Part shown: piece by piece, positions 16,073-56,201 of the stretch | Layout of the letters: every line of letters begins with the position of its first letter | How positions within the stretch are numbered: the first letter of the stretch is position 1 | Assembly: GCA_031362565.1 (NCBI GenBank) | Contig: JANLSU010000039.1 | Span: 128,001 to 192,000 of the forward strand | Reading direction: 5' to 3' | DNA: 64,000 nt | DNA from: a bacterium | GTDB lineage: Bacteria; Krumholzibacteriota; Krumholzibacteriia; G020349025 | Notes under the pieces: generated by a model | Seen by the model: the letters and a program-made list of their open reading frames with translations, nothing else | Database searches by the model: none | Told to the model about the DNA's origin: nothing | Position numbers and translations under genes: made by a program

Positions 16073-16744
16073 ATGTTGCTCGAGACTCTGCATCGACGCG
16101 CGGCAGTTGTCGGCGCGTACCTCCTGATGACCGGCACGACGCTGGCCATCTCGAACTCGGTCGCAAGCGCCAATTTGCTCGGCAATCCGGGTTTTGAAGT
16201 ACCGGCGATCCCTGCCGGGCCGCCGGAATACTTTGGAGCCGGCTCCGCATGGACGAGCTTTGGCGGCGGAATCTTTACCGTCGGCGCCGCGGTCGCACCG
16301 CCTCACACCGGCGCCCAATCGCTGAAGCTCTTCGGCGGCTGTTGCAGCGGCGCCTTTCAGCAATACCCGACACTGCCGGGCGAAACGTGGAACGGCGGCG
16401 TGTGGATGATGAACTTCCACGGTGATCCAATGGGCGGCGGTCAGGTTGCTGCCGTGAACATCGAGTGGATCAAGGCCGATGGGACTACAAATTCGAGCAT
16501 CATTCCGTTCATTAGCAACGGCACCTTCACGGCCGCTTCCCCGCGTGATGTCTGGACCCTGCAGCCCATCAGTGGAGTTGCACCCGCCGATGCGGCGTTT
16601 GCCCGCCTCGTGGTCATCACCGGCGATTTTCTGCCGGGCGGTCCCGGCGGCGCGCCGTTCTACGACGACGCCTTTCTCGACCGTGATTCGGCGGTGCCCA
16701 CCCAGGCTGCAAACTGGGGGCTGATCAAGACACTCTACCGATAA
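16073..16744 (+). CDS. Secreted single CBM-like domain protein with short WGxIKxLYR tail (223 aa)
   Basis: GGAGGAG RBS, signal peptide, domain starting NLLGNPGFE and ending GGAPFYDD, homologous by eye to both domains of 22479-23903. Ends VPTQAANWGLIKTLYR. Confidence 0.85.
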   Translation: MLLETLHRRAAVVGAYLLMTGTTLAISNSVASANLLGNPGFEVPAIPAGPPEYFGAGSAWTSFGGGIFTVGAAVAPPHTGAQSLKLFGGCCSGAFQQYPTLPGETWNGGVWMMNFHGDPMGGGQVAAVNIEWIKADGTTNSSIIPFISNGTFTAASPRDVWTLQPISGVAPADAAFARLVVITGDFLPGGPGGAPFYDDAFLDRDSAVPTQAANWGLIKTLYR

Positions 16745-16757
16745 GGCACTGCTCGCG

Positions 16758-16795
16758 ACCCGGCCCCGCAGAAATGCGGGGCCGGGTTTGTTTTT
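16758..16795 (+). terminator. Rho-independent terminator
   Basis: Perfect 13-bp stem ACCCGGCCCCGCA, GAAA loop, TGCGGGGCCGGGT, followed by TTGTTTTT, starting 14 bp after the stop. Confidence 0.9.
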
Positions 16796-16885
16796 GGGGC
16801 GATTGCCGCCGGTCGGCGTGGACTCGGGGAGCGACGCCTGAAGGTGCATCCTTGACGTATACTGGTCGCAGACTTGGAGGTTGTC

Positions 16886-18922
16886 GTGCGCCGCTTCTTC
16901 TGCGCGGTAATCCTGGCTTCGTGTTGCAGTGCATCTGCGGCGTGGGGACAGTCGTACCAGATGGTCTGGCAAGACGAATTCAACGGCACACAGCTCGATC
17001 TCACCAAGTGGGAATCGCAGGTCGGCGATGGCTGTCCGGCGCTTTGCGGCTGGGGCAACAACGAACTCGAGTACTACCGCACCCAGAATGCCGCCGTCGC
17101 GAGCGGCCTTCTGACGATCACTGCGAAGCGAGAGAATTTCGGCGGCCGCAGCTACACTTCAGCGCGGCTGCGCACCAAGAATCGCGGCGATTGGAAGTAC
17201 GGCCGCATCGAGATGCGGGCCAAGATGCCGATCGGTCGAGGGCTGTGGCCGGCGTTCTGGATGCTGCCGACCGATGAAGTGTACGGGACGTGGGCCGCCA
17301 GCGGCGAAATCGACATCTTGGAGTATCTGGGGCACCAGCCCAACCAAGTCTTTGGGACACTCCACTACGGCGGGACCTATCCCAATAACCAGTTCACGTC
17401 AAATCTGTTCACGTTGGGCTCCGGGAACTTCAACAGCGGCTTTCACGACTTCGCGCTCGAGTGGGAGCCCTGCGAGCAGCGCTGGTACGTCGACGGAGTT
17501 CTTTATGCGACACAGAAGAACTGGAACTCGACTGGCGGACCCTATCCGGCGCCTTTCGACCAACGTTTTCATTTGTTGCTGAACCTCGCGGTCGGTGGCA
17601 ACCTGCCCGGCCCGCCGGATGCAAGCACGGTGTTTCCGCAAACCCTGGTGGTCGACTACGTGCGCGTCTACCAGCTGCCGGACATCAGCGCCTGTATCGG
17701 CGTATTCGATGGCATGGATCACGCGAACCCGTTCGCCAACGGCTGGTTCACGTTCACCGGCGGCGTGGGCGGCGGTGGGATCGGAGCGAATCTCGTCGAC
17801 TTGCCGCCGGTCGACGGGTGCCGGGCGTCACTCGAAGGCGGCTGGGGCTCGGGCGGACAGCCTGGCTTCATGGGCGGCTTCGGTCGCCGTCACCCCATGG
17901 ATCTCGCCGGCATGACTCACTTTTCTTGTTGGATCCATCCCGACGCGGGTCAACAATACACTCTCGAGATCAATCTTCAGGATGACGACAATGGCGATGA
18001 CATCATTCCCAGCTCGCCGACTGCGGCCGACGACGAATTCCAGTTCAACTGCTTGGTGGGCCCCGCTGGACCCACCGCGGTCAGCGGCGGCGGCTGGCAG
18101 CGCCTTTCCATTCCGCTCGCCAGCTTCACCGACGACAACTCGTTTTATTTCGGCGGCAACGGGATTTTGGACCCGATACCGGTGACAGCTGGCGGCAATG
18201 GCCGCTTGATTAACGTTGTGATGAGCGTCATCAGCACGAGCGGCAGTAACGTCACGTTCCGAACCGACCGCTGGGCATTCACGCGGCAAACCGCCACTGT
18301 CACCGGGCAGATCTGGAACGACGCCAACGGCGACGGCGTCCTGGGTGGCACGGAATCGGGGCTCAACGGGGTTCGCGCCAATCTCTTCGATACGGCACTC
18401 GGCTCGGTTGTCGCGACGAGTACGACCGGCAGCAGCGGCAACTACAGTTTCAGCGCCCTGCTCGGTGGCCATTACGAGGTGCGGCTCGACCCGAGCACCC
18501 TGCCGACGGGTTTCGTGCCAACCGCCGATCCCGACGGCATTGCGACGCCCAATGTGTTCGCTTTGGATCTTGGCTGCGACCAAACCGCGCCGAGCCGGAA
18601 TTTCGGCTACTTTCCGACGAATTCCGACGTCCCCGCGTTCAGAAGCATCGACGTCTTACGGCAGAACGTTCCCAACCCGTTCAATCCCAGCACCTGGATC
18701 GAGTTCGAGTTGGGCGAGGACACCTTCGCGGAGATCGCCGTCTGTGACGTGGCGGGCCGCACGGTGAGGATTCTAACGCGGGCCGCAACGCCGGCAGGGC
18801 CGCATCGGGTCGCATGGGACGGTCGCGACGCGGCCGGAGCCCCAGTTGTGAGCGGCGTATATTACTACCGGCTTCACACCGCGCACGGCAGCTGGACGAA
18901 ACGCATGGTCCTGCTCCGGTGA
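16886..18922 (+). CDS. Secreted GH16 laminarinase-type enzyme with CBM-like, SdrD-B-like and FlgD/T9SS-like domains (678 aa)
   Basis: GGAGG at 16876-16880, GTG start, signal peptide; WQDEF, YTSARL, WPAFWML, GEIDILE, VDYVRVY; TGQIWNDANGDG; QNVPNPFNP...WDG...SGVYY...KRMVLLR. Confidence 0.92.
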   Translation: MRRFFCAVILASCCSASAAWGQSYQMVWQDEFNGTQLDLTKWESQVGDGCPALCGWGNNELEYYRTQNAAVASGLLTITAKRENFGGRSYTSARLRTKNRGDWKYGRIEMRAKMPIGRGLWPAFWMLPTDEVYGTWAASGEIDILEYLGHQPNQVFGTLHYGGTYPNNQFTSNLFTLGSGNFNSGFHDFALEWEPCEQRWYVDGVLYATQKNWNSTGGPYPAPFDQRFHLLLNLAVGGNLPGPPDASTVFPQTLVVDYVRVYQLPDISACIGVFDGMDHANPFANGWFTFTGGVGGGGIGANLVDLPPVDGCRASLEGGWGSGGQPGFMGGFGRRHPMDLAGMTHFSCWIHPDAGQQYTLEINLQDDDNGDDIIPSSPTAADDEFQFNCLVGPAGPTAVSGGGWQRLSIPLASFTDDNSFYFGGNGILDPIPVTAGGNGRLINVVMSVISTSGSNVTFRTDRWAFTRQTATVTGQIWNDANGDGVLGGTESGLNGVRANLFDTALGSVVATSTTGSSGNYSFSALLGGHYEVRLDPSTLPTGFVPTADPDGIATPNVFALDLGCDQTAPSRNFGYFPTNSDVPAFRSIDVLRQNVPNPFNPSTWIEFELGEDTFAEIAVCDVAGRTVRILTRAATPAGPHRVAWDGRDAAGAPVVSGVYYYRLHTAHGSWTKRMVLLR

Positions 18923-18943
18923 CCCGGGGGCGTGACACCGGGC

Positions 18944-21900
18944 TCAAGATTGGTAGAGCGCGCTTTCACGCACCCCGACGTCGAGCCGCGTGATGTGACC
19001 GAGTCGTTCGAAGAGCGCTCGGCTGAGGCCGGCGTCGAGCCGGTCACCGGCGAGAGTGGCCGCGCTGCCGTCGCTGGTGTGGACGCGAATCCAAGCCGTA
19101 TCCTGGCTCAGCTCGTAGACGATCGGCACCTGACAATAACTGAACGCAAGTGCCCCAGCCGGCACGTCGATGGAGCGATACACTGCACTCCGATCGAAGA
19201 AGTTGTACGTACCCGGTTCCCGCCGGAATTCGTTGCGCCTCAGGAGTGCGGGACGGAAGGCGATGATGCCACGCTCGACATCGACACCCAACTCGCCGAA
19301 CCGGGTGAGGATATCCTCTTTGACCTGTCCAGTCACACCGGGCTGCTGGGCGCCGGCGTGTGATGGCGTATGCGAATAGGGGTCGGTCGGAAACGCGCCA
19401 TACTCTTGGACTGTTTTCTCGAAACCCAGGCCGGCGCGGATTCGGTAGTAATTCTGCGCCAGCGCGCCGGTGAGCGCCACGGGCTCGGCCTCCCGCGTCG
19501 CGCGCAGCGCCAGCTCTTGCACGGCGAGCAGGAGCTTCGACACCATGTGCCAGTAGACGCAGCCCAGACCCTCGTAACCATACATGCTGCCCGAGCGGCC
19601 GGTGAAAGCGTGATGGCGAAAGACCGTCTCGAAGACGTCGAGCACCGCCTGGCGGTCGCGTGCGACATGCTCCGACCAAGCATCGCGCGCCGCGAGGTGA
19701 TCCAGGGCTGAACCCAGGTCGAGTGCATTCTTGAAGTCGGCATGGAACCGGTACGCTCCGAGCGCATCGCGTTCCACAATCGAATTCTCCTTGGCTTCAA
19801 CCAGGTTCCGCAAGAGCGGCACGCTGCGCACGTGCTCGTCGGGAACGACGTTCCGCTCGATGAACCCCGGGAGCTCACGCTCCGGATACAGCAAGAAACT
19901 GCGTTGGTCGGCCCGGTACATGCGGCTCCGGAACAAGCTTGTGAGGACCTGGAGCGCGTCGACGGGACTCACGACTCCGGAGCTCAACACGGCCACTTGT
20001 CCCTCGAGCATCTCCTCCAGGTGCCGAATCGCGATCTCAGGCCGATCCGGCGTCATCTGCAGCAGGTTGTACGAGTGGTAGAGACCATCGGGCCGCTGGT
20101 TGGCACGAATCGCATGGTCGAGATACTCCAAGGCGACGCGGCAAAGCGCCCCGATCTCCGCCACTGGAATCGCTTCCCTGCCGGAAAATCCGCGCGCGTA
20201 GACCGCCGCGCGGTATTCCGAGAATGTCCGGCCCAAAGCATCCATCAACTGCCGGCGATCGACATCCTGCACTTTGTCCGACGCGAGAACCCCGCGGTTC
20301 GCACTCAGGATCTTGTGCACTTGCTGCAACCAAAGCACAACCTCGGCCGACATCTGCACCGCGGTGGGTCCCAGAGGCGCCACGAGGCCTTCGAGAAACG
20401 CCAGGTACCGGCGCAGATAGCACAGGGTGACCATCGAGATTCCGTTGCCCACGAGCGCATTGTTCGCGTCGTTCCATTCCGGCCGCTGGGTGTTCATCCA
20501 AATACCGGCATCCGGCACCAGGTTCGAGAGTTTCGAGAGCGCCGGAACCACGAGCTTCTCGAGCAAATTGACGTGATACACCGATCCGTCGCGACCCGGC
20601 ACGAGCTTCCCGTCGGTCCCGATGGCGCGGACACGGTCGGCGATCCGCTTGGCCAGTTCCGCGTCGTAGACGACTGTCGAGCGCGGGTCTTGCAGCATTT
20701 CCTCGTATGGTTTGACCCGGTACGGAACGTCCGCGTAGCAAAAAACCTCGCGATCGAGCAGATCCTCGAGTTTGCCGGGCACAAAGTTCGCCAGCGCCTC
20801 GAGAAACTTCAGCAGGTAGACGATCTGGTGGTCGCCCCAGTATCCGATGCAACTCCACGGATCATCCGGGTCGGCGACCTCCCAATCGATACCCTCATGG
20901 GTAATTCGATACGGATTGAACCCATCGATGGTGGACGCGTTGACGAACTTGGCGATGAAACTCGGCAGGAAACAGGGAAAGCTCCGGGCGAGCGCCTCCC
21001 AGTTCTGAAAGATGTCCCGCCAGTTGCCCTCGTAACGCAGGGCACGGCTACCGTCCGGGTTCCGGGTGCGAATCGAAAAGCGATTCCAGGGCCGGCTGGG
21101 ATCGCCATGCCGGCGGCCAAAGTAGATCGGCAGGTACTCGTGGCACAGTCGTTCGAGATCCGGATCCTGGGTGCGGGCGGCCGCGGCGGCCAGGTCCGGC
21201 AGGAGAATCTCAGCCGGTAGGGCTGCCAGGAAAGCGTGATTGCGGCCGGCGGCCACGCGGTTCCGTGCCCGCAGACTCGCCGCAAGATCCGCCGTCGAGA
21301 TGCCGTAGTCGTGCGCGAACGTACCGCCCCGCATGTTGTTGAACACGACGCATGCCAAGTGATGACCAGCGGCCTCACGTTGGCCGGTGAGCTGGATTCC
21401 ATCGGCATTGCCGGCATTGCGGAGCAAGTTCCGGTTCGCGTTCAAGAGACTGTCTTCGATCGCGCGGTCGAGACCCGCCGCCTCTCCGAGGCGGCGGCGG
21501 AGGGCGGCAATTTGGACGTGGCTCTGGCCGGTATCGGCGACGACATGCCACTTCGCATGCGCCCCGGGTTCCAATTCGAGCCGCGCGGCGACAAGGTAGT
21601 TGCCGCGGCGCCCGGTCAAAGAATGCCCGTGGTGGACCGCCGCGCCGCGCCGGAACGCCGCAATCGCGTCCGCTGCAAGACAGACGTCGAAACCAGCGAG
21701 GCCGCAACTCCAAACCGTGTTGGCGCGCAGCTCTTCAGCTGCTTCGGGCCGGTCGATAATGCGCGCGGTGAGCGAGAAAACCCCGAGCCGCGTTTCTGGA
21801 TCGCAGTCGCTGCGTTTGTACGCATCGACCAGGCAACTCGACTGTTGATAGAGCGCGAGGGGCACGCCATGGGGCAGGACATTTCGCAAGCCGTCAAGGA

Positions 21901-22411
21901 CCGCCGCCCCGATCGCACCGGAACCTCGATTGGTAAGAGTCGCGGTACGCACCAGGCCGAACTCATCACTTCCGGCCCAGCGATACCGAAACACGAGACC
22001 GAGATCGTGATTGATCTCTTCGAAAAGAACCCGGTTGCCGAGCGGCGTCTTGTACAGATTCCGCTCGATGCGGAAGTCCTCCGCAGCGCGTTCGGAAAAC
22101 GGCTGCCACAAGACATCGCGCCTGGAGTGCCGTTGCAGCCGAATGAGGCTGATGGGGCCCGTGTGGTAATGGCCGTCGTGAAGCTTGTCGACCGTTTCGT
22201 AGGGAAACAGGCTGCCGTCGGGGTCCGTTCTCCCCGCCGTCAGGCCGCCGCCGGAACTGATGAACATCCACAGATCGGCGTCGCTGGTGATGCTCATCAG
22301 AAATGGCGGCAGCCGGTCGTAGGCGGAGATACGGTAATACTCCTCCCCGTCCACCAACGTGAACTCGCCGGCTGGCTCCGGGCGAGTCTGTGCGGCGCGA
22401 CCGATGGTCAA
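18944..22411 (-). CDS. GH149-type beta-1,3-glucan phosphorylase (1155 aa)
   Basis: Motifs LWMFISS.GGLTAGR, FGRRHGDPSRPWN, YEGNWRDIFQNWEAL, WMNTQRPEWNDANNALVG, EMLEGQVA, YEGLG..YWHMVSKL, YGAFPTDPYSHTP, QQPG.TGQVKE. No signal peptide. AGGAG before the TTG start. Confidence 0.85.
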   Translation of the reverse strand: MTIGRAAQTRPEPAGEFTLVDGEEYYRISAYDRLPPFLMSITSDADLWMFISSGGGLTAGRTDPDGSLFPYETVDKLHDGHYHTGPISLIRLQRHSRRDVLWQPFSERAAEDFRIERNLYKTPLGNRVLFEEINHDLGLVFRYRWAGSDEFGLVRTATLTNRGSGAIGAAVLDGLRNVLPHGVPLALYQQSSCLVDAYKRSDCDPETRLGVFSLTARIIDRPEAAEELRANTVWSCGLAGFDVCLAADAIAAFRRGAAVHHGHSLTGRRGNYLVAARLELEPGAHAKWHVVADTGQSHVQIAALRRRLGEAAGLDRAIEDSLLNANRNLLRNAGNADGIQLTGQREAAGHHLACVVFNNMRGGTFAHDYGISTADLAASLRARNRVAAGRNHAFLAALPAEILLPDLAAAAARTQDPDLERLCHEYLPIYFGRRHGDPSRPWNRFSIRTRNPDGSRALRYEGNWRDIFQNWEALARSFPCFLPSFIAKFVNASTIDGFNPYRITHEGIDWEVADPDDPWSCIGYWGDHQIVYLLKFLEALANFVPGKLEDLLDREVFCYADVPYRVKPYEEMLQDPRSTVVYDAELAKRIADRVRAIGTDGKLVPGRDGSVYHVNLLEKLVVPALSKLSNLVPDAGIWMNTQRPEWNDANNALVGNGISMVTLCYLRRYLAFLEGLVAPLGPTAVQMSAEVVLWLQQVHKILSANRGVLASDKVQDVDRRQLMDALGRTFSEYRAAVYARGFSGREAIPVAEIGALCRVALEYLDHAIRANQRPDGLYHSYNLLQMTPDRPEIAIRHLEEMLEGQVAVLSSGVVSPVDALQVLTSLFRSRMYRADQRSFLLYPERELPGFIERNVVPDEHVRSVPLLRNLVEAKENSIVERDALGAYRFHADFKNALDLGSALDHLAARDAWSEHVARDRQAVLDVFETVFRHHAFTGRSGSMYGYEGLGCVYWHMVSKLLLAVQELALRATREAEPVALTGALAQNYYRIRAGLGFEKTVQEYGAFPTDPYSHTPSHAGAQQPGVTGQVKEDILTRFGELGVDVERGIIAFRPALLRRNEFRREPGTYNFFDRSAVYRSIDVPAGALAFSYCQVPIVYELSQDTAWIRVHTSDGSAATLAGDRLDAGLSRALFERLGHITRLDVGVRESALYQS

Positions 22412-22478
22412 CTTCCGGCTCCTCGATTTCGATGCAAGCCGCGCCGCCTGGATGTCGCTCGGGCGTGACTACGACTGG

Positions 22479-23903
22479 TTACTTCATCAGCACCATGTTG
22501 TGCGCCAATTTACCCGCCGAGGTTGTCAGCACGTACCGATAAATCCCCGTTGCGGCGGTGCCGCCATTCGTCGTCTTTCCATCCCACACCACAGCGTGTG
22601 GGCCCGGCTCCACAGTGCCGCGCAACAGAGTCGCCATCCGCCGGCCGGCGACATCGTAAATGCTCAGGTCCACGGTGTCCGCCTGCGGCAGATCGAACGC
22701 AATGCGAGTCGACGGATTGAAAGGGTTCGGTACGTTTTGATGCAGCCAGAGACTGGCGGCGGGCGTGCCGGGAGCAACGTCCGTCGGGCCTTGTTGCCGG
22801 AACAACACGTCATCGATGAACATCGCTCCGCCGGATATCGTTGGCGAAACGAAGAGAATATACGCTTGTACCGACGCGGTGCCTGCCGGAGCCGGGGGGG
22901 ATCTCAGGACATGCTGCGTCCATGTTCCAAGCGGCGCAGCGTGGTCGATGATCACCGTTTGGCTCGAGCCGATCTCGGTGTTGGCGGCATCGCGGAACAC
23001 GATCTTGGCGAGCCCGAGGTTGTCGTTGGTCCCGGAAATGGGGCCGTCCTGGCACGTGGTCAGCGAGTAGACATCGAGCTTCCATTTCGATCCCGGCGCC
23101 GCCGCAAAAGCCTGATACATGCCGGAATCGGAACCCAAGACAAACGTCGAGAACAACTTGGCGGCGCCGGCCGGCGTACGGGCTGCGAATGCGCGCCCGT
23201 CGTACAGCGCGTTGCCGAACGTGGTCCAGCCGTTCAGGCTGGTGGCAAAACTCGAGTTGGCCAGGAGATTGGATTCCGCGGCGCCCGGCGTCAGCTCGAC
23301 GAACGACGTGTCATCCACGTAGACCGCTCCGCCATCGCAGGCCGGCTGCAGGTACAGGAACATGGCCTGCACACGCAATGCGCCGGGAGGAACCGGCGCC
23401 GACACCGAGAAGGCGTTCCACTGGTTGCGAATCGAGTTGCCGTCACCGATGACGACTTCGTTCGAAGAAATCTCGGAGCCGCCACCCGCAGCATTGAAAA
23501 AGACGATCTTCGCGATCATGCGGTTCTTGTTGCAGGTGTCGGTGCCCGGAATAGGGTCGGCACTCGACACGTACGAATAGCCGCTCAGCCGATAAAGCTT
23601 GCCGGGCGTCGGTGCGAGGAGGGATTGGAAGCAACCACTGACGTTGAACCCCCCAGGACCGGGACAGCCCGGGAATGCTCCGAAGATCTTCGACGCGGCA
23701 ACGCCGGTGCGAATGATGTTGTCTCCCGCCGGCAGCGACAACGCCACATTGTTCCCAGGAAAAGTGGACCAGCCGTTGTACGAGCCGCCTGCCGCCTCGA
23801 AGCCGGGGTTGGTCAGGAGATTGGCCTGCGCGAACGATTGTGACGCGATGGCCAATGCGGCCACGAACGTCAACGGAAGCGAAGCGTTCAAGAGGCGCTG
23901 CAT
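22479..23903 (-). CDS. Secreted protein with two CBM-like domains and FlgD/T9SS-like CTD (474 aa)
   Basis: GAGGAGG RBS, signal peptide, tandem domains NLLTNPGFE...GGAVYVDD and NLLANSSF...GGAMFIDD, then QNVPNPFNP...WDG...ATGIY...NMVLMK. Confidence 0.85.
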   Translation of the reverse strand: MQRLLNASLPLTFVAALAIASQSFAQANLLTNPGFEAAGGSYNGWSTFPGNNVALSLPAGDNIIRTGVAASKIFGAFPGCPGPGGFNVSGCFQSLLAPTPGKLYRLSGYSYVSSADPIPGTDTCNKNRMIAKIVFFNAAGGGSEISSNEVVIGDGNSIRNQWNAFSVSAPVPPGALRVQAMFLYLQPACDGGAVYVDDTSFVELTPGAAESNLLANSSFATSLNGWTTFGNALYDGRAFAARTPAGAAKLFSTFVLGSDSGMYQAFAAAPGSKWKLDVYSLTTCQDGPISGTNDNLGLAKIVFRDAANTEIGSSQTVIIDHAAPLGTWTQHVLRSPPAPAGTASVQAYILFVSPTISGGAMFIDDVLFRQQGPTDVAPGTPAASLWLHQNVPNPFNPSTRIAFDLPQADTVDLSIYDVAGRRMATLLRGTVEPGPHAVVWDGKTTNGGTAATGIYRYVLTTSAGKLAHNMVLMK

Positions 23904-24069
23904 CGTGACCCTCCTCAGGTGAAGCACCGGGAACGAATCTCGTTGCGAATCGGTGTCGATCTCGATCCCGACTCGATGGCGCGCGGCCGTGTCGCGGCGC
24001 GCCAGGACTCCAGACGACACCCGGCGCGCCTGCTTGTGGACCCATAGGGGGCGGAGGCCGATGCGTGTC

Positions 24070-24118
24070 TTGACAGTCCTATTGGGATCCTACACTATGT
24101 TCGATAGGCGAACAAAGT
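24070..24118 (+). promoter_or_regulatory. Palindromic operator copy 2 with overlapping sigma70-like promoter
   Basis: TTGACA (24070-24075), N17, CACTAT (24093-24098). ACTATGTTCG-ATAGG-CGAACAAAGT at 24094-24118, 25 bp before the ATG at 24144. Confidence 0.8.
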
Positions 24119-24143
24119 CCCTTTTTTCGTGGCGAGGCACCGG

Positions 24144-25151
24144 ATGCAGGCCGATCGCACATTGCCGCAGGCCCCGTTGCTCGAACTGTGCGGCATCCGC
24201 AAGACTTTCACCTCGACCGGGCTGTTCGCGGCCGCGCGCCGCGTTGTCGCCGCGTCCGACGTCTCGTTCGCGATCGAGCGCGGACAGGCCGTGGCGTTGG
24301 TCGGCGAATCGGGTAGCGGCAAGAGCACCCTCGCACGGCTCGTCCTGCGGCTCGAAAACCCGGACGTTGGCGAGATTCGTCTCGACGGCCTGGATATGCT
24401 GGCCCAGGAGCCTCGTGGAGCTTCCCTTGGCTATCGCGCCCGCGTGCAAATGGTGTTTCAGGACCCCTTTGGCTCGCTGAACCCAGTCCACGACGTCTTC
24501 CATCATTTGGAGCGACCGCTGCGGCGCCATCACCGGGCAGAGCCTGCGAACGTGCGAGCGCGGGCCCTGGAACTGCTGAATATTGTCGGCCTCGAGCCGG
24601 CCGAGGACTTCATCGACCGGCGTCCGTACGAACTGTCGGGCGGGCAGCGCCAGCGAGTCGCCATCGCCCGCGCCCTCGCGGTGGACCCCGACCTCCTGGT
24701 CGCCGATGAGCCGACGTCGATGCTCGACGTGTCGATCCGCATGGGGGTTCTGAACCTTCTCGCGCATCTCAAGCGCGACCGGCACCTCGCCATCCTGCTC
24801 ATCACGCACGATCTGGCGTCGGCGCGTTACCTGGCGGACCGCGTCCTTGTTCTCTATCGCGGCCGGGTCGTGGAAGAGGGCTCGACCAACGCCGTGATCG
24901 AGACGCCGGCCCACCCTTACACGCGTGCGCTTCTGGCTTCCATCGCCGGCGACGCAGCGGACACGCAGCGGACCGCGCCGCGATGGGTCGAAGCCTCGAG
25001 TGGCGAAGAAACCCACGGCTGTCCGTTTGCGCCGCGCTGCCCCGACGTGCTCGACATTTGTCACACCGAGGATCCGCCGCCGCGGACTGCGAACGGCCGC
25101 CAAGTTCGCTGCCACCTGTACCCGCAAAACGCGCCGGCATCCGGGAGCTGA
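24144..25151 (+). CDS. Opp/Dpp-family ABC ATP-binding subunit (OppF-like)
   Basis: GESGSGKS, LSGGQRQR, LLVADEPTSMLD, ITHD, HPYT and Cys-rich GCPFAPRCP...C...VRCHL. Confidence 0.95.
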   Translation: MQADRTLPQAPLLELCGIRKTFTSTGLFAAARRVVAASDVSFAIERGQAVALVGESGSGKSTLARLVLRLENPDVGEIRLDGLDMLAQEPRGASLGYRARVQMVFQDPFGSLNPVHDVFHHLERPLRRHHRAEPANVRARALELLNIVGLEPAEDFIDRRPYELSGGQRQRVAIARALAVDPDLLVADEPTSMLDVSIRMGVLNLLAHLKRDRHLAILLITHDLASARYLADRVLVLYRGRVVEEGSTNAVIETPAHPYTRALLASIAGDAADTQRTAPRWVEASSGEETHGCPFAPRCPDVLDICHTEDPPPRTANGRQVRCHLYPQNAPASGS

Positions 25152-25157
25152 GGCTCG

Positions 25158-29680: not shown

Positions 29681-29681
29681 G

Positions 29682-30641
29682 CTACTTCGCGAGGTGGCAG
29701 GCGGCCGCGTGACCGGGGCGGTACTGGACGAGCTCCGGCGTGCGTACGCGGCAGAGATCCACGGCTACGGCGCAACGCGGGTGGAAACGACAGCCCGCGG
29801 GTGGGTTGCGCAAACTCGGTGGCGTGCCTGGGATACTCGCGAGTTCCACGGCGCCGCCGTGTAACGCCGGAAACGCCCGCAGGAGTCCTTGGGTGTAAGG
29901 ATGCAGCGGCGCGCGCCGGAGCTCCGCCACCGGCGCGATCTCGACCAGCCGGGCGGCATAGAAGACCGCGACACGGTCCGAGAACTGCAGCATGCGCGCC
30001 AGGTCGTGGGTGATCAATATCACGGCGAAACCCAGCCGACGCTGCAGGGCGCGGATCTGCTCGAGGATTTCGCGTTCGACGATCACATCCAGTGCGGTCG
30101 TGGGCTCGTCCAGAATGACCAAGGCGGGTTCCAGCGCCAGGGCCAGCGCGATGTTCACCCGCTGCCGCATGCCACCCGACAGTTGGTGTGCATAGGAGTC
30201 GAGCCGGTCGCCGGGCATCCCGACCATACGCAAGAGTTCCGCGGCTCGGGTGCGCGCCGCGTCGCGGCTCGGCGCGTCATGCGCGAGAAGTGTATCGACG
30301 ATCTGCTCGCCAACCGTGATCACCGGGTTCAGTGCGTCCATCGCGCTCTGAAAAACCATCGAAATGCGTTTCCAACGCAGGGTGCGCAATTCCGGCTCGG
30401 GGAGCGACAGCAGATCGCGTCCTTCGAATTGGACACTGCCGCCTGAAATGACCGCCGGCGGCGGCAGGATACGCAGCAGTGCCTGCGCCATGGTGGACTT
30501 GCCGCTGCCCGACTCGCCCGCGACACCCAGGATCTCGCCTGGTCCGACGTCCAGCGAAACGTGATCGATGGCGCGCACCGGCCCTTGGTCTGTGATGTAA
30601 TCGATGCAGAGGTCGCGAATGGACAGGATTGGTTCAGTCAC
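29682..30641 (-). CDS. Opp/Dpp-family ABC ATP-binding subunit (OppD-like)
   Basis: GESGSGKS, LSGGMRQR, ILDEPTTALD, HPYT, GCRFHPRC. GTG start overlaps the permease end. Confidence 0.95.
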   Translation of the reverse strand: MTEPILSIRDLCIDYITDQGPVRAIDHVSLDVGPGEILGVAGESGSGKSTMAQALLRILPPPAVISGGSVQFEGRDLLSLPEPELRTLRWKRISMVFQSAMDALNPVITVGEQIVDTLLAHDAPSRDAARTRAAELLRMVGMPGDRLDSYAHQLSGGMRQRVNIALALALEPALVILDEPTTALDVIVEREILEQIRALQRRLGFAVILITHDLARMLQFSDRVAVFYAARLVEIAPVAELRRAPLHPYTQGLLRAFPALHGGAVELASIPGTPPSLRNPPAGCRFHPRCAVAVDLCRVRTPELVQYRPGHAAACHLAK

Positions 30642-31575
30642 GATCCAACACCACCGGCGTCGAACGCGTCGGCTGCTGATGCCGAACGACAAGATACTTG
30701 CGCCAGGCGCGCTCCAACTGCAACCGCGGATTGGTGACTTCGTCAAACCCGGAGTTGAGCATCGTCAGACCAAAGCCCACCAGCGCCACACACAGCCCAG
30801 TGGGCGCGAACGTCCACCAGGCACCGGTGAGGAGCGCTGCGTCATTTTGTGCCCAGTAGAGATTCGTTCCCCAGGTCACGGCAGAAACGTCGCCGAGGCC
30901 CAGGAACTCGAGCCCTACCTGCGCGCCGATCGCGTACACCGTGCTGCCGATGACCTGCGCCACCAGCAACGAAGTCATGTTCGGCAGAATCTCACGCGTC
31001 ACGATGCGGAAGTTCGACTCCCCCGACACGACCGCGGCAGCGACAAAATCGCGTTTGCGCAACGCCAGCGTCTGGGCGCGGATGACGCGGGCGTTCCACG
31101 CCCACCCGGTGACGATGAGGACGAGCGCCAGCGTGAACGGCCCGGAGGGCAGGTACGCGGCGATGACGATCGCAAGCGGCAGCCCGGGGATGACCAGGAA
31201 AATGTTGAAGAGCAGCGAGAGGATCCCGTCGACACGCCGGCCGAAGTACCCAGCCGTGACACCGACGAGCGCCCCCACGAACACGACGATCACGCCCACT
31301 CCGAAACCGATCGCGAGCGAAATCCGAGTCCCGGTCACGACCTGGGCCAGCACGTCTTGCCCCTGGCCCGTTGTTCCGAGCCAATGCGCCACCGAGGGCG
31401 GCTGCAGCGGTATCCCGACGAGAGCATCCGGTTCGCCGACGAACCACCGGCCGAACAATGCGATGGCTGCAAAGAAAGCCAGAACGACTGCACCGATCGT
31501 CGCCTTGCGGTCGCGGCGAATCGCCATCCACCAGGCGGCCACGCCAGTCACCTTGCGGTCCAGAGCGGCGCTCAC
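30634..31575 (-). CDS. Opp/Dpp-family ABC permease (OppC-like)
   Basis: HWLGTTGQGQDV, multiple TM helices, EAA-type loop DFVAAAVVSGES, FLGLGD...WG. GTGA overlap with the upstream permease. Confidence 0.95.
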   Translation of the reverse strand: MSAALDRKVTGVAAWWMAIRRDRKATIGAVVLAFFAAIALFGRWFVGEPDALVGIPLQPPSVAHWLGTTGQGQDVLAQVVTGTRISLAIGFGVGVIVVFVGALVGVTAGYFGRRVDGILSLLFNIFLVIPGLPLAIVIAAYLPSGPFTLALVLIVTGWAWNARVIRAQTLALRKRDFVAAAVVSGESNFRIVTREILPNMTSLLVAQVIGSTVYAIGAQVGLEFLGLGDVSAVTWGTNLYWAQNDAALLTGAWWTFAPTGLCVALVGFGLTMLNSGFDEVTNPRLQLERAWRKYLVVRHQQPTRSTPVVLDRD

Positions 31576-32555
31576 GATGACGACTCCCGGGTGCGCGGAT
31601 CGAGCCACAGGTAAACCAGGTCGACGACCCAGTTCGCGCCCAGCACCGCCAGCGTGATCACCAAGAAGATGCCCTGCATGAGTGGGTAGTCCTGGTTCCG
31701 CACCGCCTGCACCAGCAAGTACCCTTGGCCCGGGTAGGAAAAGACGATCTCGGTGAGCAGCGATCCGCCCAATACGAAACCCAGCGCCATACCGAAGCCA
31801 GTGACACTGGGGAGCAAGGCATTACGAGCCGCGTAGCGGAACGCCACCCGCGATGGGCGGACGCCCTTCGCACGGGCCAGATTGACATAGTCCGACCCGA
31901 GGATCGCGATCATGGTGTTGCGCATGGTGAGCAACCATCCACCCAGAGTGGCCAGCACCACGGTCGCAACCGGCAGCACCGCGTGCCGCGCGACGTCCGC
32001 GAGGAACGCGGCTGAGAAACTCGGCGTCAGGTCATCGGCGTACGCGTGTCCGAGTGGCAGCCAGCCGAGCGAAAACCCGAACACGTAGAGAGCCACCATC
32101 GCCAGCCAGAAATACGGGAATGAACCCAGAAAAGCGAAAGTGGAAGGCAGCCAAGTATCGATCCAACCGTGGCGCCACCAGGCCGAAGCGATGCCAAGCA
32201 GGGTGCCGATCGCGAAGCTGATCAGGACCGCCGAGCCCGCGAGAAAGAGCGTCCACAGAAGGCCGGTGCGAATGACGTCCGCGACCGGCGCCGGGAAATA
32301 GGCGACTGAAATGCCAAGGTCACCGCGCATGACGTGCCCGAGGTATGTGAAATATTGCCCCAAGAGCGGCGCATTCGTCAGGCCAAAGGCCGCCCGGAGT
32401 GCCTGCATCGCCTCCGGGGCGAGCCGGCCGTGGAAACGCGCGAAAAGCGCCGTGGCAGGGTCGCCCGGCATGAGGCGCGGCAAGAAGAAGTTCAGTGTCA
32501 CAGCCAGCCACGCCGCGAGAAGGTAAAAGCCGAACCGCCGCAAGATGTAGCGCAT
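31572..32555 (-). CDS. Opp/Dpp-family ABC permease (OppB-like)
   Basis: MRYILRR...RLMPGDPA, GDLGIS, DYVNLARAKG, YPGQG, DYPLMQG, LDPR. Confidence 0.95.
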   Translation of the reverse strand: MRYILRRFGFYLLAAWLAVTLNFFLPRLMPGDPATALFARFHGRLAPEAMQALRAAFGLTNAPLLGQYFTYLGHVMRGDLGISVAYFPAPVADVIRTGLLWTLFLAGSAVLISFAIGTLLGIASAWWRHGWIDTWLPSTFAFLGSFPYFWLAMVALYVFGFSLGWLPLGHAYADDLTPSFSAAFLADVARHAVLPVATVVLATLGGWLLTMRNTMIAILGSDYVNLARAKGVRPSRVAFRYAARNALLPSVTGFGMALGFVLGGSLLTEIVFSYPGQGYLLVQAVRNQDYPLMQGIFLVITLAVLGANWVVDLVYLWLDPRTRESSS

Positions 32556-32564
32556 GCACTCCTC

Positions 32565-34234
32565 CTAGCGTGGGGCAAGCGTGGTGAGGACCAAGAGGCA
32601 CTCGCCCCGGTCGAGTTTGTTAGGAGAAGGATCGGCGTACGGTTCCGCGGCCGAGGGGAACCCGGTGAAGCGGCTCGTGTTGTACTCCGCCCAAGAAGGA
32701 TTCGGATACAACGGGATTGCTGGAGCTTCGGCAACGAAGGTGCGCTGCAGCGCGTCGCTCAGTTCGTGCTGACGCGCCGGATCGGGTTCGCGCTCGAATG
32801 CCGTGAGCGCCCGGTCGGCCGCCGGGCTTCCGTAACGATGCCAGTTCCCCATCGACGGCGTGCCGATCGGGCCTACCGTCGCCGAAGACATGAACCAGCG
32901 ATAGAACGAATACGGCGTCGGCCCCTCGAACGAGTATCCCATGCTGAGATCGAAGTTTCCTTCTTGGACCCGCTGGAACCAGGCGCTGAAATCATAGGTG
33001 CGAACGGTCGCCTTGATGCCCACGTCACGCAGCCCGCGCGCGATGACTTGCGCGGCGCGCACCCAATCCGACCAGCCGGAGACCGTGAGGATTTCGTATT
33101 GCCACGGAGCACCGTCGGGCAGGCGGCGGATGCCATCGGTGCCGCGCCGATAACCTGCTTCGTCCAAGAGCGCGCCGGCGCGTGCCACGTCGTGGCGCAC
33201 CCAATCACCGCTCGCAGCGATATCGGCGTTGCGCCACGCCGAATAGGCATCGCTCAAACCAGTGGCGTCGCAGGGGCGCGAGTACCGGTACAAGGCCACG
33301 TCGACGAGGAGGTCGCGATCGATGGCCATGCTGAGTGCCTTCCGCACTGGCACCTTGTCGAACGGCGTACGCGTCGTATTGGCGTAGAGAAAGATGCTGC
33401 TGCCGGTGAGTGGAAACCAGTAGTGATGCGACTGCGGCTGGCGGCGCACGAAGACGCGGTCGATGGCGGGAATGAAATTCCCCGCCCAGTCGACCTCATC
33501 AAAGACCAGTGCGAGGTTGGCGCGGTCATTGCCGGGGTAGGCAGGAAAGCGCAGCGCCTCGACCTTGGGCAAACCGGCTTGCCAGTAGCGCGGATTGCGA
33601 CCGAGTTCGTAGACCTGGTTCTGGAAAACCCGCACTTCCGTGAACGGCCCGGTCGCGACCGGGTGCTCGTTGGCATACGTGACCGGATCCGGAACGTCCT
33701 TCCAAGTGTGCTCGGGCACGATCTGCTGCGCAGCAATCTCGTCGAAGCCCGGGATGAAGACGCGCTGGAATCGAAAATCGACCGTGCGTTGATCGACAGC
33801 CTGCACGCCGGCCAAAAAGCCCCAGACGCCACGCCGATCGAGCGCCCGGTGCCGTTGCAGGAGTTCGAACGTAAAGGCCACATCTCGCGCCGTGAACGGC
33901 TGCCCGTCCGACCATAGAACGCTGTCGCGCGTCGTGACCCGTAGCACGAGGTTGTCTTCACGCCACTGACGCTCGAGCGCCAGCCACGGCACGAACTTGG
34001 CCTGCAGGCTATTGAAGACGAAGAGCGGTTCGTAGATCCCCGCGAGAGTCGGCCATCGCGCCGCGGTGGCGGTCGTCAAGGGATTGAAGTTGCGCACCCA
34101 TGAGGCCTGCTGCTCCTGCGAAACCACGAGGACTCCGCGCGGCGGATGCGGGCGGTCCTGAGCGCACGCCGCGGCCAGGACGGCCGCAAGAGCGAACGTG
34201 AACCGGGCAGCGCTCTGGACCCGGGCGGCGGCGT

Positions 34235-34238
<4 letters not shown>
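32565..34238 (-). CDS. Family 5 solute-binding lipoprotein, probably oligosaccharide-binding (557 aa)
   Basis: Lipobox LAAAC; RNFNP, IYEPL, WSDGQPFTARDVAFTF, PVATGPF, GWSDW, PAIPLY. ATGA overlap with GH16. Confidence 0.92.
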
Positions 34239-35058
<820 letters not shown>

Positions 35059-35062
<4 letters not shown>

Positions 35063-36294
35063 GAGGCGTCCTTTAGACGTGCCGCCGCCGGGAAAAGGCG
35101 CGAGTCGGCGAGCGCCGACTTGAGAACGAGAGTCGCGGCACCGACGGCGACGGACTGCGGACCGAGCTCGCTGGTTCGCACTTCGGCGGCTTCGATCGAA
35201 CTCACGAGAGTGCGGCGCCGCACTGTTTCGTTGAGTGGCCCGAGGAGCAGTTCGCCGAGCGGTGCCAGGTCACCCCCCAAAACGACCAGCGCCGGGTTCA
35301 TGAGGTTCAACATGCCGGCCACCGCGATCCCCAAGTACTCCGCCGCTTCCCGCACGATGCGCACCGCCATGGGATCGCCGGCGAGCGCCGCGTCCTCGAT
35401 CGCAGCGACGGTCGGCGGGCTGCCGGCAAGCGCACTGTGGGGGTATTCGGCGAGCAGCCTGCTGGCGCGTTCCACGAGTGCGGCCTGGCCAACGAGGGTG
35501 CCGAGACAACCGCGCAGGCCGCACATGCACGGCGAACCGTGTGGGTCGATGGGTAGGTGCCCGATCTCTCCGGCGACACCGGTCGCACCGCGATAGATAT
35601 TGCCGTCAATGACATGGCCCGAACCCACGCCTGTCGCAACTTTGATGTAGGCGAAATGATCGACACCCCGTCCCGCCCCCCACCAATGCTCGGCGAGAGC
35701 GCCCAAATTCGCGTCGTTGTCCACGAGCACCGGGACGCCATAACGCCGGCTCAGGACTTCGAACCCGTGGCGCCCGTGCCAGTCAGGAAGCACCAATTCC
35801 GAGAGCCGTTCGGGATGGCGAGGATCCATTGGGCATGGAACCGCGACCCCGATGCCCACCAGCCGGCGAACGCCACGTCGCCACGCCTTGATACCGGCAT
35901 CGCAGAGCTCGAGGATCAGTGCCCGAGCACCGTCCGGGTCGGTGCGCACCGGGTGGCGGCGTTCGTCCCAAGCAAGCACGTGACCACGCAAATCGGTCAG
36001 CGCGACCGCCACGTGCGCCGCGCCCATTTCAACTCCCAGGATTCCGCACGCCTGGTCCTGAAACTGCAGCACCACCGGGCGGCGTCCACCGGTCGACGCC
36101 TCGGTTCCGACCTCGGCGATGAGTCCGGTGCGGAGCAGTTCCACCACGATTTCCGAAACAGTCGAGCGCGCCAGCTCGGTCCGGCGGGCAATCTCGGCGC
36201 GCGAGATCTCACGCTCGCGCCAGATGAGCCGCAGCAACGAGTCGATGAGTGGGCGCGGGCGCACTGCCGTAACGCGCCGCGCACCGTTTGTCAC
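35059..36294 (-). CDS. ROK-family transcriptional repressor (start uncertain)
   Basis: HTH ISRAEIARRTELARSTVSEIV, GGRRP linker, DNDANLGALAE, GEIGH, CMCGLRGCL zinc motif. Confidence 0.93.
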
Positions 36295-36353
36295 CGCGGC
36301 TGCCTTCGTCAATCGCCCATCGCTTCGTACCGGCACGTCCACCCCCGCGGCCC

Positions 36354-37772
36354 TTACTTGTGGAAGTAGAGGTTGTCGATATACTCGGTCTTCAGGCCGC
36401 TGCCCGAGAGAAAAAGCTGTGCGAGATGAGCCCGGTTGGTAAGAGCGGGGGGGGGAGTAATCGTCGCAAAGTCCGCCAACGGGATCTCGAGTCCAACCCA
36501 TGCACCATGCACCAAGGGCGGAGTGGAAGTCGCGTTGAACGTGAGTTCGCCTTCCGTGTCATCCCCACCGCTGAATTGGCCGTTGGCGCCGAAATCGACG
36601 AGCTTCACCTTGAACTCCGAGCCTTCTCCGACCCAGACATCGAGATGGAAGTGCGTCATCTGCGTCGCATCGATGGGCTGTGAAACGAACTCGATCGCGG
36701 CGAAGCCGCGATGCGTATACAGCTTCACGTCGTTGCCGGCGATTTGCGTATCGGTAACGTCGGCGTAGTCCCAATCCGGGGACCAGGTGTCGACCGGCAC
36801 GTTGGTGTAGGCGTTGCTGAACAATGAGATGACGTTTGCCGCAAGAACCGTCGGCGTCGGCGCTGCCGTGGCGGGAGGAGCGGTGATGTTCAGAGTGATC
36901 GCCCCGTTCACGGGGACGGTTTCGAGCTTGGCCGTGATGGTGGCTGTGCCGCCAGCAACGGCCTGGACCACGCCGTCGACGACCGTCGCCACACTCGCAT
37001 TCGACGACTCGAACGTGAAGTATGCCGGCGAGTGGGCCACCGTCTGATCGGTACCGTCGACGTTGAAGATTACCCGCGCGCTATCGATGGTCACCGGCGT
37101 ACCTACGAAAGTACTCACGGTCTTCGAGGCCATAAATGGCCGCGGATCGGTGATCGTGGCGACCGTTTCGAACTTGACCTCGTCGAAATACAGGTCATAC
37201 CCCAAGCCATTCTCCGGCCCTTCGGAGAAGAAGAACAGGCCTTTTTCGGAGGTCAGCTTCGTCGCCGATGGAATGGGCACCACGTACTTCGTCCAAGTCG
37301 TGGAGAGGGGGAGGTCGCCCGACTTGGCGAGGTATGTCGTTGTGGCGAGGTATGCCGGGGCGGGGCCGATGTCGATTCCAATCCCGGCCTCGCTGAGCGT
37401 CGGATGCGCGCTCCGCTGCTGGCCGATCTTGGCCCAGAAGGTCAGGGCGTTGTACCCCGAGAGATCGCGGGCCAGAGTCGTCGTGAAGGTACCGCCGGCA
37501 TAACTCGCATCGGGATTGCCCGGATTGGGGACGGTGACCTTGAGCGATGCTGTACCGAGGTACTTTTCCGTGGTCTCGAGGGCCACGGCGTCGTAGTTCG
37601 AACCGAGAAAAGCCTGGAAGGTCGCGTAGTTACCAAAGTTATCGTCGAACACAATCGGGTCGTTGTTCGGAGGTGCGGGCGCCAACGTGTCGGTCTCCCG
37701 GCCGCAACCGGTGGTTGCGAGAACCGCGATACTCGCGGTCGCGACCAGTAGGAACGCGATTCTCAGTCGCAT
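36354..37772 (-). CDS. Surface lipoprotein with CBM-like and Ig-like domains (putative glycan-binding protein, 472 aa)
   Basis: GGAG RBS, lipobox ATTGC; RDLSGYNALTFWAK; Ig-like SSNASVATV; AAPTPT..AANVISLFSNAY...YIDNLYFHK module, which I recall from Bacteroidota laminarin loci (not verified by search). Confidence 0.8.
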   Translation of the reverse strand: MRLRIAFLLVATASIAVLATTGCGRETDTLAPAPPNNDPIVFDDNFGNYATFQAFLGSNYDAVALETTEKYLGTASLKVTVPNPGNPDASYAGGTFTTTLARDLSGYNALTFWAKIGQQRSAHPTLSEAGIGIDIGPAPAYLATTTYLAKSGDLPLSTTWTKYVVPIPSATKLTSEKGLFFFSEGPENGLGYDLYFDEVKFETVATITDPRPFMASKTVSTFVGTPVTIDSARVIFNVDGTDQTVAHSPAYFTFESSNASVATVVDGVVQAVAGGTATITAKLETVPVNGAITLNITAPPATAAPTPTVLAANVISLFSNAYTNVPVDTWSPDWDYADVTDTQIAGNDVKLYTHRGFAAIEFVSQPIDATQMTHFHLDVWVGEGSEFKVKLVDFGANGQFSGGDDTEGELTFNATSTPPLVHGAWVGLEIPLADFATITPPPALTNRAHLAQLFLSGSGLKTEYIDNLYFHK

Positions 37773-37847
37773 GTGTCGTCTCCGGGTTTGGCCCGGGGTT
37801 CCGAACCCCAGACCCCTCGACGCATGGTACAACACCACGCGTCCGAC

Positions 37848-37898
37848 TCTTTGTTCGGATCTCGAACAAAGAATGGACGGCCCGGCTGGGCCTGTCAA
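37848..37898 (-). promoter_or_regulatory. Palindromic operator copy 3 with overlapping sigma70-like promoter
   Basis: Perfect arms TCTTTGTTCG-GATCT-CGAACAAAGA at 37848-37872. On the minus strand, TTGACA (37898-37893), N17, CATTCT (37875-37870), facing the operon that contains the ROK gene. Confidence 0.85.
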
Positions 37899-54689: not shown

Positions 54690-54713
54690 CGGGGACGTGG
54701 CGTCGCGCCCTCG

Positions 54714-56153: not shown

Positions 56154-56201
56154 GTTTCCCTCCCCGTTTTTCCCCGTCGTGGGGGCTTGGAGCCCCGCGC
56201 G

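Follow-up and report, generated by a model that had tools for sequence, protein, structure and literature searches.

How might a glucan cross the outer membrane of a diderm bacterium whose genome holds no SusD? This question is raised by a gene cluster in the window analysed here, a stretch of 64,000 nucleotides (G000:C85:128001-192000, GC content 61-70%) belonging to a genome of 5.4 Mb in 133 contigs that was scored 100% complete. The host is an uncultured diderm of the Fibrobacteres-Chlorobi-Bacteroidetes (FCB) group, and its nearest named relatives are metagenome-assembled genomes (MAGs) labelled Eisenbacteria or Krumholzibacteriota. Placement by FtsZ, for which Zixibacteria, Ignavibacteria and Eisenbacteria stand at 59-65% identity, goes no further than the FCB group. 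Laminarin-type beta-1,3-glucans are a major carbon flux. What has been established about their uptake concerns mainly Bacteroidota, where it depends on SusC/D, and for Vibrio there is a sketch of a route through an ATP-binding cassette (ABC) importer. It is quite likely that the cluster is a single regulon for the use of such glucans, repressed by a regulator of the ROK family. Its most unusual part, and an uncharacterised component, is a protein encoded at 26543-29680 in which an enzyme domain of glycoside hydrolase (GH) clan GH-A is fused to an outer-membrane beta-barrel. The comparisons reported below were made on 201 genomes sampled from the phylum of the host and on a set of 80 loci carrying GH149 (L-numbers), and the gene content was confirmed through Pfam, NCBIfam and PDB searches. 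Members of this phylum are submitted under the names Krumholzibacteriota or Eisenbacteria, and a gene of L024, a locus titled Krumholzibacteriota, recurs in the sampled genomes at 100% identity. All features are collected in Table 1.

A 21-bp palindrome, with the extended consensus TTTGTTCG-N5-CGAACAAA, is found in three promoter regions of the cluster. The core of this motif, TGTTCG-N5-CGAACA, occurs in perfect form three times in the window (15928, 24098 and 37852), always in a 5' intergenic position, and only five times in the whole genome; the palindromes used as a control, made by permuting the half-site without changing its base composition (59 of them), had 0.41 matches on average and never more than 3. 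The other two perfect cores are located inside the open reading frame (ORF) of an AAA-type ATPase on a 2-kb contig (C1) and among unrelated genes (C90). Moreover, the motif is present at 13-16 of its 16 positions in the related loci L018, L019, L020, L024, L028, L030, L031 and L036, whose MAGs bear titles such as Eisenbacteria, Krumholzibacteria(ota) and Fibrobacteraceae. This conserved and locus-restricted motif would be the operator bound by the ROK protein encoded in the cluster, whose best NCBIfam matches are NagC and Mlc, both below the cut-offs, and whose true start is probably near 36273-36294. In our reading one repressor governs the whole cluster, which would comprise three or four operons, and the newly defined operator makes of it a directly testable regulon.

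The first-pass annotation had listed two GH16 enzymes, GH149, GH1, a complete Opp-family ABC transporter, a ROK regulator and a GH17 at 2510, and all of them were recovered by the searches of Pfam, NCBIfam and PDB. The match of GH149 to NF058639 spans model positions 6-1133 of 1134, and its residues 19-1152 align to 45-1174 of 6hq6, the characterised enzyme Pro_7066, so that the homology extends over the whole length. Among its closest named homologues, as among those of the barrel fusion, are proteins labelled Krumholzibacteriota or Eisenbacteria. No signal peptide was seen in GH149 or in GH1, and both are probably cytoplasmic. The nearest solved relatives of the smaller GH16 (34235-35062) are beta-1,3-glucanases (PDB 3atg, 1.2e-74; 2vy0; the T. 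maritima laminarinase 3azx, 8.9e-60). The large GH16 (16874-18922), which probably starts at a GTG at 16886, has a middle domain without family match and carries the motif EIDILE; EIDIME and EIDILE, present in the two GH16 proteins, fit E-x-D-x-x-E, which we take to be a form of the GH16 catalytic motif. GH149, the barrel fusion and GH17 are each encoded by a single genomic copy, and GH16 catalytic domains are detectable at the locus only.

The proposed pathway would proceed in five steps. Judging from their sorting signals, the large GH16 and a two-module protein would be exported by means of tails of the type IX secretion system (T9SS) type, with the GH16 lipoprotein and a three-domain lipoprotein placed at the envelope. 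The glucan, or oligosaccharides cut from it, would then cross the outer membrane, for which the best candidate is the 26543 fusion, possibly together with the three-domain lipoprotein. At the inner membrane a family-5 lipoprotein and an OppBCDF-type ABC transporter would import oligosaccharides, a step in which the protein family is observed and the ligand is suggested by the context. In the cytoplasm GH149 would release glucose-1-phosphate by phosphorolysis, an activity proposed from the homologue Pro_7066, and GH1 would finish the degradation. Finally, the ROK protein would bind the palindrome at the three promoter regions and be released by a sugar effector. This order had already been proposed from the letters alone, and the predicted locations agree with it (signal peptides, lipoboxes and T9SS tails on the one side, GH149 and GH1 without signal peptide on the other); what does not hold generally is the import by Opp, which belongs to a minority of the relatives, the others having an importer of the major facilitator superfamily (MFS).

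Table 1. Positions of the cluster genes, the putative operators and the GH17 gene in the window
Feature	Position	Strand	Evidence and remarks
Secreted GH17	2510-3673	+	PF00332 31.6 bits vs 28.2; PDB 6fcg (GH17 family glycoside hydrolase) 5.2e-20
Putative operator O1	15926-15946	.	perfect core; 14/16 consensus positions; 129 nt upstream of 16073 start
Small secreted protein, 223 aa	16073-16744	+	signal peptide then NLLGNPGFE-type start; no Pfam or NCBIfam match
GH16 endo-beta-1,3-glucanase, exported	16874-18922	+	PF00722 5e-23; SdrD_B PF17210; T9SS-type C-terminal sorting domain TIGR04183 26 bits vs 23
GH149 beta-1,3-glucan phosphorylase	18944-22411	-	NF058639 1533.5 bits vs cut-off 1150; PDB 6hq6 E=0, 1147 bits
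Secreted protein, two repeated N-terminal modules, T9SS-type sorting tail	22479-23903	-	FlgD_ig 5.9e-10, residues 400-463
Putative operator O2	24096-24116	.	perfect core; 15/16; divergent region between 23903 (-) and 24129/24144 (+) starts
OppF-type ABC ATPase, first gene of + operon, ATG at 24144	24129-25151	+	ABC_tran 8.6e-33; oligo_HPY 1.1e-13
GH1 beta-glucosidase	25158-26546	+	PF00232 9.9e-162; TIGR03356 609 bits vs 478.5
Signal peptide + GH-A TIM barrel (~37-445) + outer-membrane beta-barrel (~448-1044), 1045 aa	26543-29680	+	AF2, Foldseek, VIA, profile
OppD-type ABC ATPase, start probably near 30641	29682-30746	-	ABC_tran 7.1e-30; oligo_HPY 2.2e-19
OppC-type permease, start uncertain	30634-31608	-	BPD_transp_1 2.3e-20; OppC_N
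OppB-type permease	31572-32555	-	BPD_transp_1 9e-39
Family-5 substrate-binding protein, lipoprotein-type signal	32565-34238	-	SBP_bac_5 1.7e-66
Second GH16, laminarinase lipoprotein	34235-35062	-	PF00722 3.4e-23
ROK-family regulator, winged helix-turn-helix (HTH) + ROK domain	35059-36501	-	PF00480 1.8e-52; HTH_IclR and MarR matches residues 89-131
Lipoprotein: N-terminal beta domain, Big_2, C-terminal module	36354-37772	-	Big_2 1.4e-4; invariant lipobox Cys23 in alignment
Putative operator O3	37850-37870	.	16/16 consensus match; 80 nt upstream of 37772 (-) start

The distribution of the genes in the phylum indicates which parts of the system are constant. GH149 is present in 97 of the 201 genomes and the fusion in 94; a comparison of the two lists puts both in 93, that is in 93 of the 98 genomes that have either, and the two genes are typically a few kb apart when they are on one contig. 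The fusion is found without GH149 only in G024, as a broken copy, and GH149 without the fusion in G065, G132, G192 and G194, two of which are less than 70% complete. An orthologue of the MFS_2 importer (query from L024) is encoded by 82 of the 201 genomes and is absent from the present one. Orthologues of the Opp binding protein, 65-79% identical to it, occur in eight genomes of five families; of the seven carriers other than the present genome, five have the gene next to GH149 or the fusion. L024 and L031, for example, combine an MFS importer, which takes the place of the ABC transporter, with the ROK protein, GH1, GH149, the fusion, GH16, GH17 and tail-bearing proteins. In the whole set of GH149 loci, homologues of Opp-type permeases and ATPases accompany GH149 in 5 of 80 cases: L018, L019, L020, L032 (Neomarinimicrobiota) and L071 (Photobacterium). 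From the phylum distribution it follows that the regulon is old and common in the lineage, where Opp has replaced the MFS importer, at the inner-membrane step, in a minority of cases. Both variants can coexist in one genome, since G120 carries two copies of the locus core, one with the Opp binding protein (C63) and one with the MFS importer (C178). GH149, which the first reading of the sequence had called typical of Bacteroidota as part of GH149/GH17/GH16 sets, is not specific to them: besides about half of the sampled genomes of this phylum, it is present in many other phyla. A core of GH16, GH149, GH1, ROK with its operator and the fusion is conserved in a large uncultured FCB lineage, with an inner-membrane importer that is interchangeable between ABC and MFS.

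The absence of a TonB-dependent receptor and of SusD from the locus, claimed at the outset, is confirmed: there is no Plug or other TonB-receptor domain in the window, the only one on the contig being about 100 kb from the locus, and neither PF07980 nor PF14322 has a match anywhere in the genome. Adjacent susC-like and susD-like genes, which define a polysaccharide utilization locus (PUL) sensu stricto, are not found at the locus. SusC/D absence is, in fact, a trait of the phylum and not of the locus, to which it had been credited; SusD (PF07980) is present in only one of the 201 genomes, as a copy with an internal stop. The genome holds 13 TonB-receptor genes recognised by their Plug domain. 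Paralogues of GH149, the fusion, GH17 or GH16 were not found near any of these, and a TonB-receptor gene was found neither near the perfect cores nor near the weaker matches to the operator (at least 13 of 16 positions) genome-wide; leaving aside the contig of the window, the sole weak match on a contig with a TonB receptor is 28 kb from the receptor. A co-regulated SusCD pair carrying the same operator was thus looked for and not found, either as SusD or as an operator-bearing TonB-receptor gene. The loci L024 and L031 are also without TonB-receptor gene.

An entry through the outer membrane that does not use TonB had been suggested without naming a protein for it; we infer it as well, and the barrel fusion now gives it a concrete candidate. 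The existence of a GH-A/beta-barrel fusion at 26543 was already proposed from the translation, and structure prediction and fold search agree with it. The start of its gene overlaps the GH1 stop. The AF2 model of the full protein, based on an alignment of 24 sequences (pLDDT 72.3, pTM 0.52), has a TIM barrel followed by a long run of antiparallel strands. The best Foldseek matches of the whole model are endo-laminarinases of GH158 (9p26, 8.3e-12; 6pal, 6.3e-11) and GH157; for GH158 the target TM-score is 0.53-0.56 and the identity only 15-16%. By sequence, a profile of the family finds 6pal (1.5e-7) and GH158(Pro) (4.9e-6), with the motifs GNE and TEFG aligned, and a single-sequence search with the fusion gave no match at E<=0.01. 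These two motifs, which from general knowledge of clan GH-A we take to be the acid/base and nucleophile positions, are invariant in the 24 aligned fusion sequences. Model and profile together suggest that the N-terminal domain is a distant GH158-like glucanase.

A separate model of the C-terminal 606 residues has pLDDT 70.5, pTM 0.68 and about 26 long strands (DSSP). Foldseek matches this domain to BtuB, Cir, PfeA and LptD, from 3e-8, and all listed rows are bacterial outer-membrane proteins; with VIA, the matches are the FimD pore (Z 13.7, 354 residues aligned), PapC, AlgE, Occ porins, a SusC and barrels of mitochondria and plastids. Plug (PF07715), PF00593 or any other Pfam family has no match on the barrel. 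With a TIM barrel at its N-terminus and about 26 strands, in place of a Plug inside a barrel of 22 strands, the protein does not classify as a TonB-dependent transporter. In three proteobacterial homologues of the fusion the C-terminal residue is Phe. More than 4349 database proteins match the fusion at E<=1e-10 (among 8000 candidates scored), and the best 120 homologues measure 986-1104 aa, with names that say no more than "glycosidase", "GH2 TIM barrel" or "hypothetical". In the literature searched we found no description of such a glucanase-barrel fusion, which is not proof that it is unpublished. In three copies of the gene in the phylum sample (G024:C1:1058375-1061527, G157:C2:122443-125481 and G142:C3:84148-87200) the reading frame is broken by several stops, every one a TGA, and decay of the gene is more probable than recoding. 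GH149 is intact in G157 and G142.

We hold the fusion to be the best candidate for the outer-membrane step, and give this proposal somewhat under an even chance. A serious rival, itself short of an even chance, is that the fusion does no more than anchor a glucanase in the outer membrane, the oligosaccharides entering by way of a general porin or of a TonB-dependent receptor encoded elsewhere, for which the 13 Plug-domain genes of the genome speak. On the other side, no such receptor gene, as mentioned, is associated with the operator or with a paralogue of the locus enzymes, and a barrel of about 26 strands is far bigger than a membrane anchor requires. The enzyme domain is found free-standing (49-56% identity) upstream of GH149 in seven other loci, and in four of the six that were scanned neither a barrel nor SusC/D is present within the flank; a GH149 cluster can thus make do with an outer-membrane component from another place in the genome, and the Photobacterium locus L071 has a LamB porin instead. 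Against this stand the conservation of the fusion at about 1050 aa in so many database proteins and its company with GH149 in nearly all the phylum genomes that have either.

A third possibility is that the fusion exports or remodels a beta-glucan made by the cell itself, as do porins of the PgaA, BcsC and AlgE type. Structural matches to the export barrels AlgE (Z 12.7), PelBC (Z 11.8) and 4y25 (Z 10.6) would be in accord with such a function, which is nevertheless very improbable: the fusion gene is in an operon with an importer ATPase and GH1, under an operator of sugar-repressor type, there is no glycosyltransferase or synthase in the cluster, and across phyla the fusion co-occurs with the catabolic GH149, GH16, GH17 and GH30.

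If the fusion does serve uptake, it may not do so alone. In Flavobacteriia the fusion gene is immediately followed by one for a homologue of the 36354-37772 lipoprotein. The complex predicted for the barrel and residues 24-300 of the lipoprotein scored 0.50 (runs 0.41, 0.52 and 0.50), the best of three controls being 0.04; the runs agree in at least 62% of the contacts, and the pLDDT of the partner is at least 83. In the calibration of this score 116 of 157 solved complexes, against 2 of 215 mismatches, came up to the mark; only 18 of the 157, and both mismatches, did so at 0.60 or below, so that the prediction weakly suggests an interaction. On this basis one may imagine that fusion and lipoprotein form a TonB-independent analogue of SusC/D, in which a chain captured at the surface would be threaded through the pore and the fused endo-glucanase, on the periplasmic side, would cut it as it emerges, coupling translocation to hydrolysis. 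This mechanism is speculative and rather unlikely. Were it true, it would represent a widespread, undescribed uptake route for one of the most abundant glucans of sea and soil; in any event the fusion is a concrete candidate for the passage of glycans without SusC/D, and it is present also in culturable Flavobacteriia.

Coupled threading and cutting by the fusion would mirror, at the outer membrane, a fusion of MFS and GH17 that is found at the inner membrane of related loci. In fact MFS_2 is fused to a C-terminal GH17 in L066:17419-19764, L014:6432-8999, L063:16518-18866 and L080:16528-18873, within GH149 loci of Flavobacteriia, Cytophagia and a gammaproteobacterial MAG, and is the second enzyme-transporter fusion of the pathway. 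An MFS-GH17 fusion is among the features reported for Formosa (PMC6246565).

The import through the inner membrane is assigned to an Opp/Dpp-type transporter that is complete in all five parts, one ATPase being encoded on the opposite strand and in the other operon. The best PDB matches of its binding protein are chito-oligosaccharide binders of Vibrio (3e-87 to 1e-83), followed by the mannoside and beta-glucan binders of T. maritima (1e-52 to 1e-47; TM0031-type, PDB 2o7i, 4.5e-48), and the match to NikA is weaker (9e-23). PDB 8i5j is a Vibrio chito-oligosaccharide-binding protein described in PMC10667598. As judged from sequence similarity, the protein is a member of the sugar-binding branch of the Opp family, and the context favours beta-glucan oligosaccharides as its ligand. 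That the transporter imports chito-oligosaccharides or peptides, and is a mere neighbour of the beta-glucan genes, is improbable in our opinion. The Vibrio relatives do speak for it; the genes of the transporter, however, are split over two operator-bearing operons and interleaved with GH16, GH1 and the fusion, the start and stop codons of the binding protein and of GH16 overlap, and the orthologues of the binding protein in the phylum keep their place beside GH149 or the fusion. Moreover, GH149 is combined with an Opp cassette also in L032, in L071 and in published Type I clusters, and a Pfam scan found no chitinase in the window.

Several points weigh against the picture of one regulon with the fusion at the outer membrane. 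Scanned for consensus promoters, the operator regions showed no sigma-70-like site. The large GH16 gene is downstream of the strong terminator-like hairpin at 16757-16788, 3' of the 16073 gene, and has no operator of its own. GH17 at 2510 is 12 kb from the cluster, with unrelated genes between, and there is no match to the motif at 13 or more of the 16 positions near it; in relatives it sits inside the cluster. The closest solved relatives of the Opp binding protein bind (GlcNAc)n, not beta-glucans. In the 16073, 22479 and 36354 proteins, Pfam gave no match to a carbohydrate-binding module (CBM) even at E<=5. The confidence of the full AF2 model of the fusion is moderate, with 179 residues below pLDDT 50 at the pTM given above. 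Finally, we rejected the simple scheme in which the fused barrel replaces SusC/D and the free domain goes with SusC/D. Of five genomes with the fusion, one has SusD no more than 5 kb from it, where the genome-wide check used PF07980 only and may have missed some SusD-like genes, and SusC/D are adjacent in two of the six free-domain loci scanned; because the fused or free state of the N-domain does not track the presence of SusC/D, the fusion is not simply a stand-in for them.

The three exported proteins without enzymatic domain had been described as CBM-like. That they exist as secreted proteins or lipoproteins is correct, and the CBM part of the claim found no family behind it in Pfam, nor in the PDB sequence searches made with two of the three (22479-23903 and 36354-37772), which gave no match. 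A pointer of ESM-Atlas to CBM_4_9 was weak (scores 0.83-0.86, below 0.9), and the assignment was dropped. The 22479-23903 protein is kept as a candidate glycan binder, and homologues of the 16073 protein are present in L014 and L018. The T9SS-type tails qualify their carriers as cargo: the 16874 protein exceeds the TIGR04183 cut-off, it shares FlgD_ig-type tails with the 22479 protein, and the genome encodes a translocon protein of the SprA type (SprA_N 37.5 bits vs 27). The sorting tail of the GH16 and of the putative binding proteins, about 85 aa long, has more than 100 matches genome-wide. Eight such matches, about 3.3 kb apart, are located on contig C45 (13664-36943) in what looks like a tandem array of paralogous genes.

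In the remainder of the window, the same tail is carried by a 2588-aa ORF (7085-14851, -) with a matrixin-type M10 peptidase, Big_5, TIG and beta-propellers, which adjoins a 1062-aa TPR-CHAT protein (3859-7047). A small secreted Cys-rich protein (38181-38662, +) lies on the opposite side of operator O3 and is not obviously a member of the regulon. The end of the window (52581-64000, -) is ordinary, with RecG followed by a division and cell-wall cluster of FtsZ, FtsA, MurC, MurG, MurD and MraY.

Several known systems resemble the cluster in part. The association of GH149 with an Opp-type ABC importer, which the first reading had taken for a hybrid pathway, was published, together with the parallel with Thermotoga, in 2018 by Kuhaudomlarp et al. 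as Type I clusters (PMC5827456), found in Proteobacteria such as Vibrio and composed of GH149, a five-gene Opp-type cassette and a LacI or AraC regulator, and the authors already compare Type I with the laminarin ABC system of T. maritima (PMC5827456). In their words Type I clusters have neither extracellular laminarinase nor outer-membrane transporter (PMC5827456), and the same paper also describes Type II clusters (TonB receptor and MFS), PULs of Bacteroidetes and clusters of carbohydrate-active enzymes (CAZymes) without susCD (PMC5827456). The present locus shares with Type I a GH149 gene beside a COG0747/0601/1173/0444/4608 ABC cassette and a regulator, and differs in the ROK protein, the two GH16 with export signals, the exported putative binding proteins, GH1 and the barrel fusion. 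Compared with L071 of Photobacterium lutimaris, an example of Type I, the binding protein is only 35% identical. L071 encodes a LamB-family porin (L071:18899-20089), a different outer-membrane solution, and also a GH18 chitinase and two GH3.

The likeness to T. maritima TM0024-TM0032 is at the family level: both combine a GH16 laminarinase located outside the cell with a sugar ABC importer of the Opp family and a ROK repressor. What was originally said of Thermotoga is in agreement with the published account, in which the ROK protein BglR (TM0032) regulates how laminarin and beta-glucosides are used (PMC3553997). The T. maritima locus is without GH149, barrel fusion and T9SS cargo. Identity of the two operators is ruled out, as the BglR site printed in that paper is AT-rich, of TTTCTT/AAGA type (PMC3553997), unlike TTTGTTCG-N5-CGAACAAA.

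With the laminarin PULs and SusC/D-less CAZyme clusters of Bacteroidota (Formosa, PMC6246565; L049, L066 and others) the cluster has in common GH16, GH17, GH149, the fusion (47-55% identity) and a homologue of the lipoprotein; those loci have an MFS or MFS-GH17 importer, GH30 or GH3 and a regulator of the hybrid two-component system (HTCS) or LacI type, whereas here an ABC importer, GH1 and ROK are found. As for the fusion itself, GH158 (BuGH158, 6pal; GH158(Pro), 9oro/9p26) is the best match by fold and by profile, with the clan GH-A motifs NE and TE(F/W)G aligned, but GH158 enzymes are soluble proteins of about 400 aa without barrel, at the low identity to the N-domain reported above. With FimD and PapC ushers, LptD, TonB-dependent transporters including SusC, and AlgE it shares a predicted closed antiparallel barrel of comparable size; it differs from these large outer-membrane barrels in having no Plug, an identity of 7-10% and a glycosidase as N-terminal partner. 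The combination is thus new only in part: it is a variant of known beta-1,3-glucan systems to which a new operator and an uncharacterised fusion are added.

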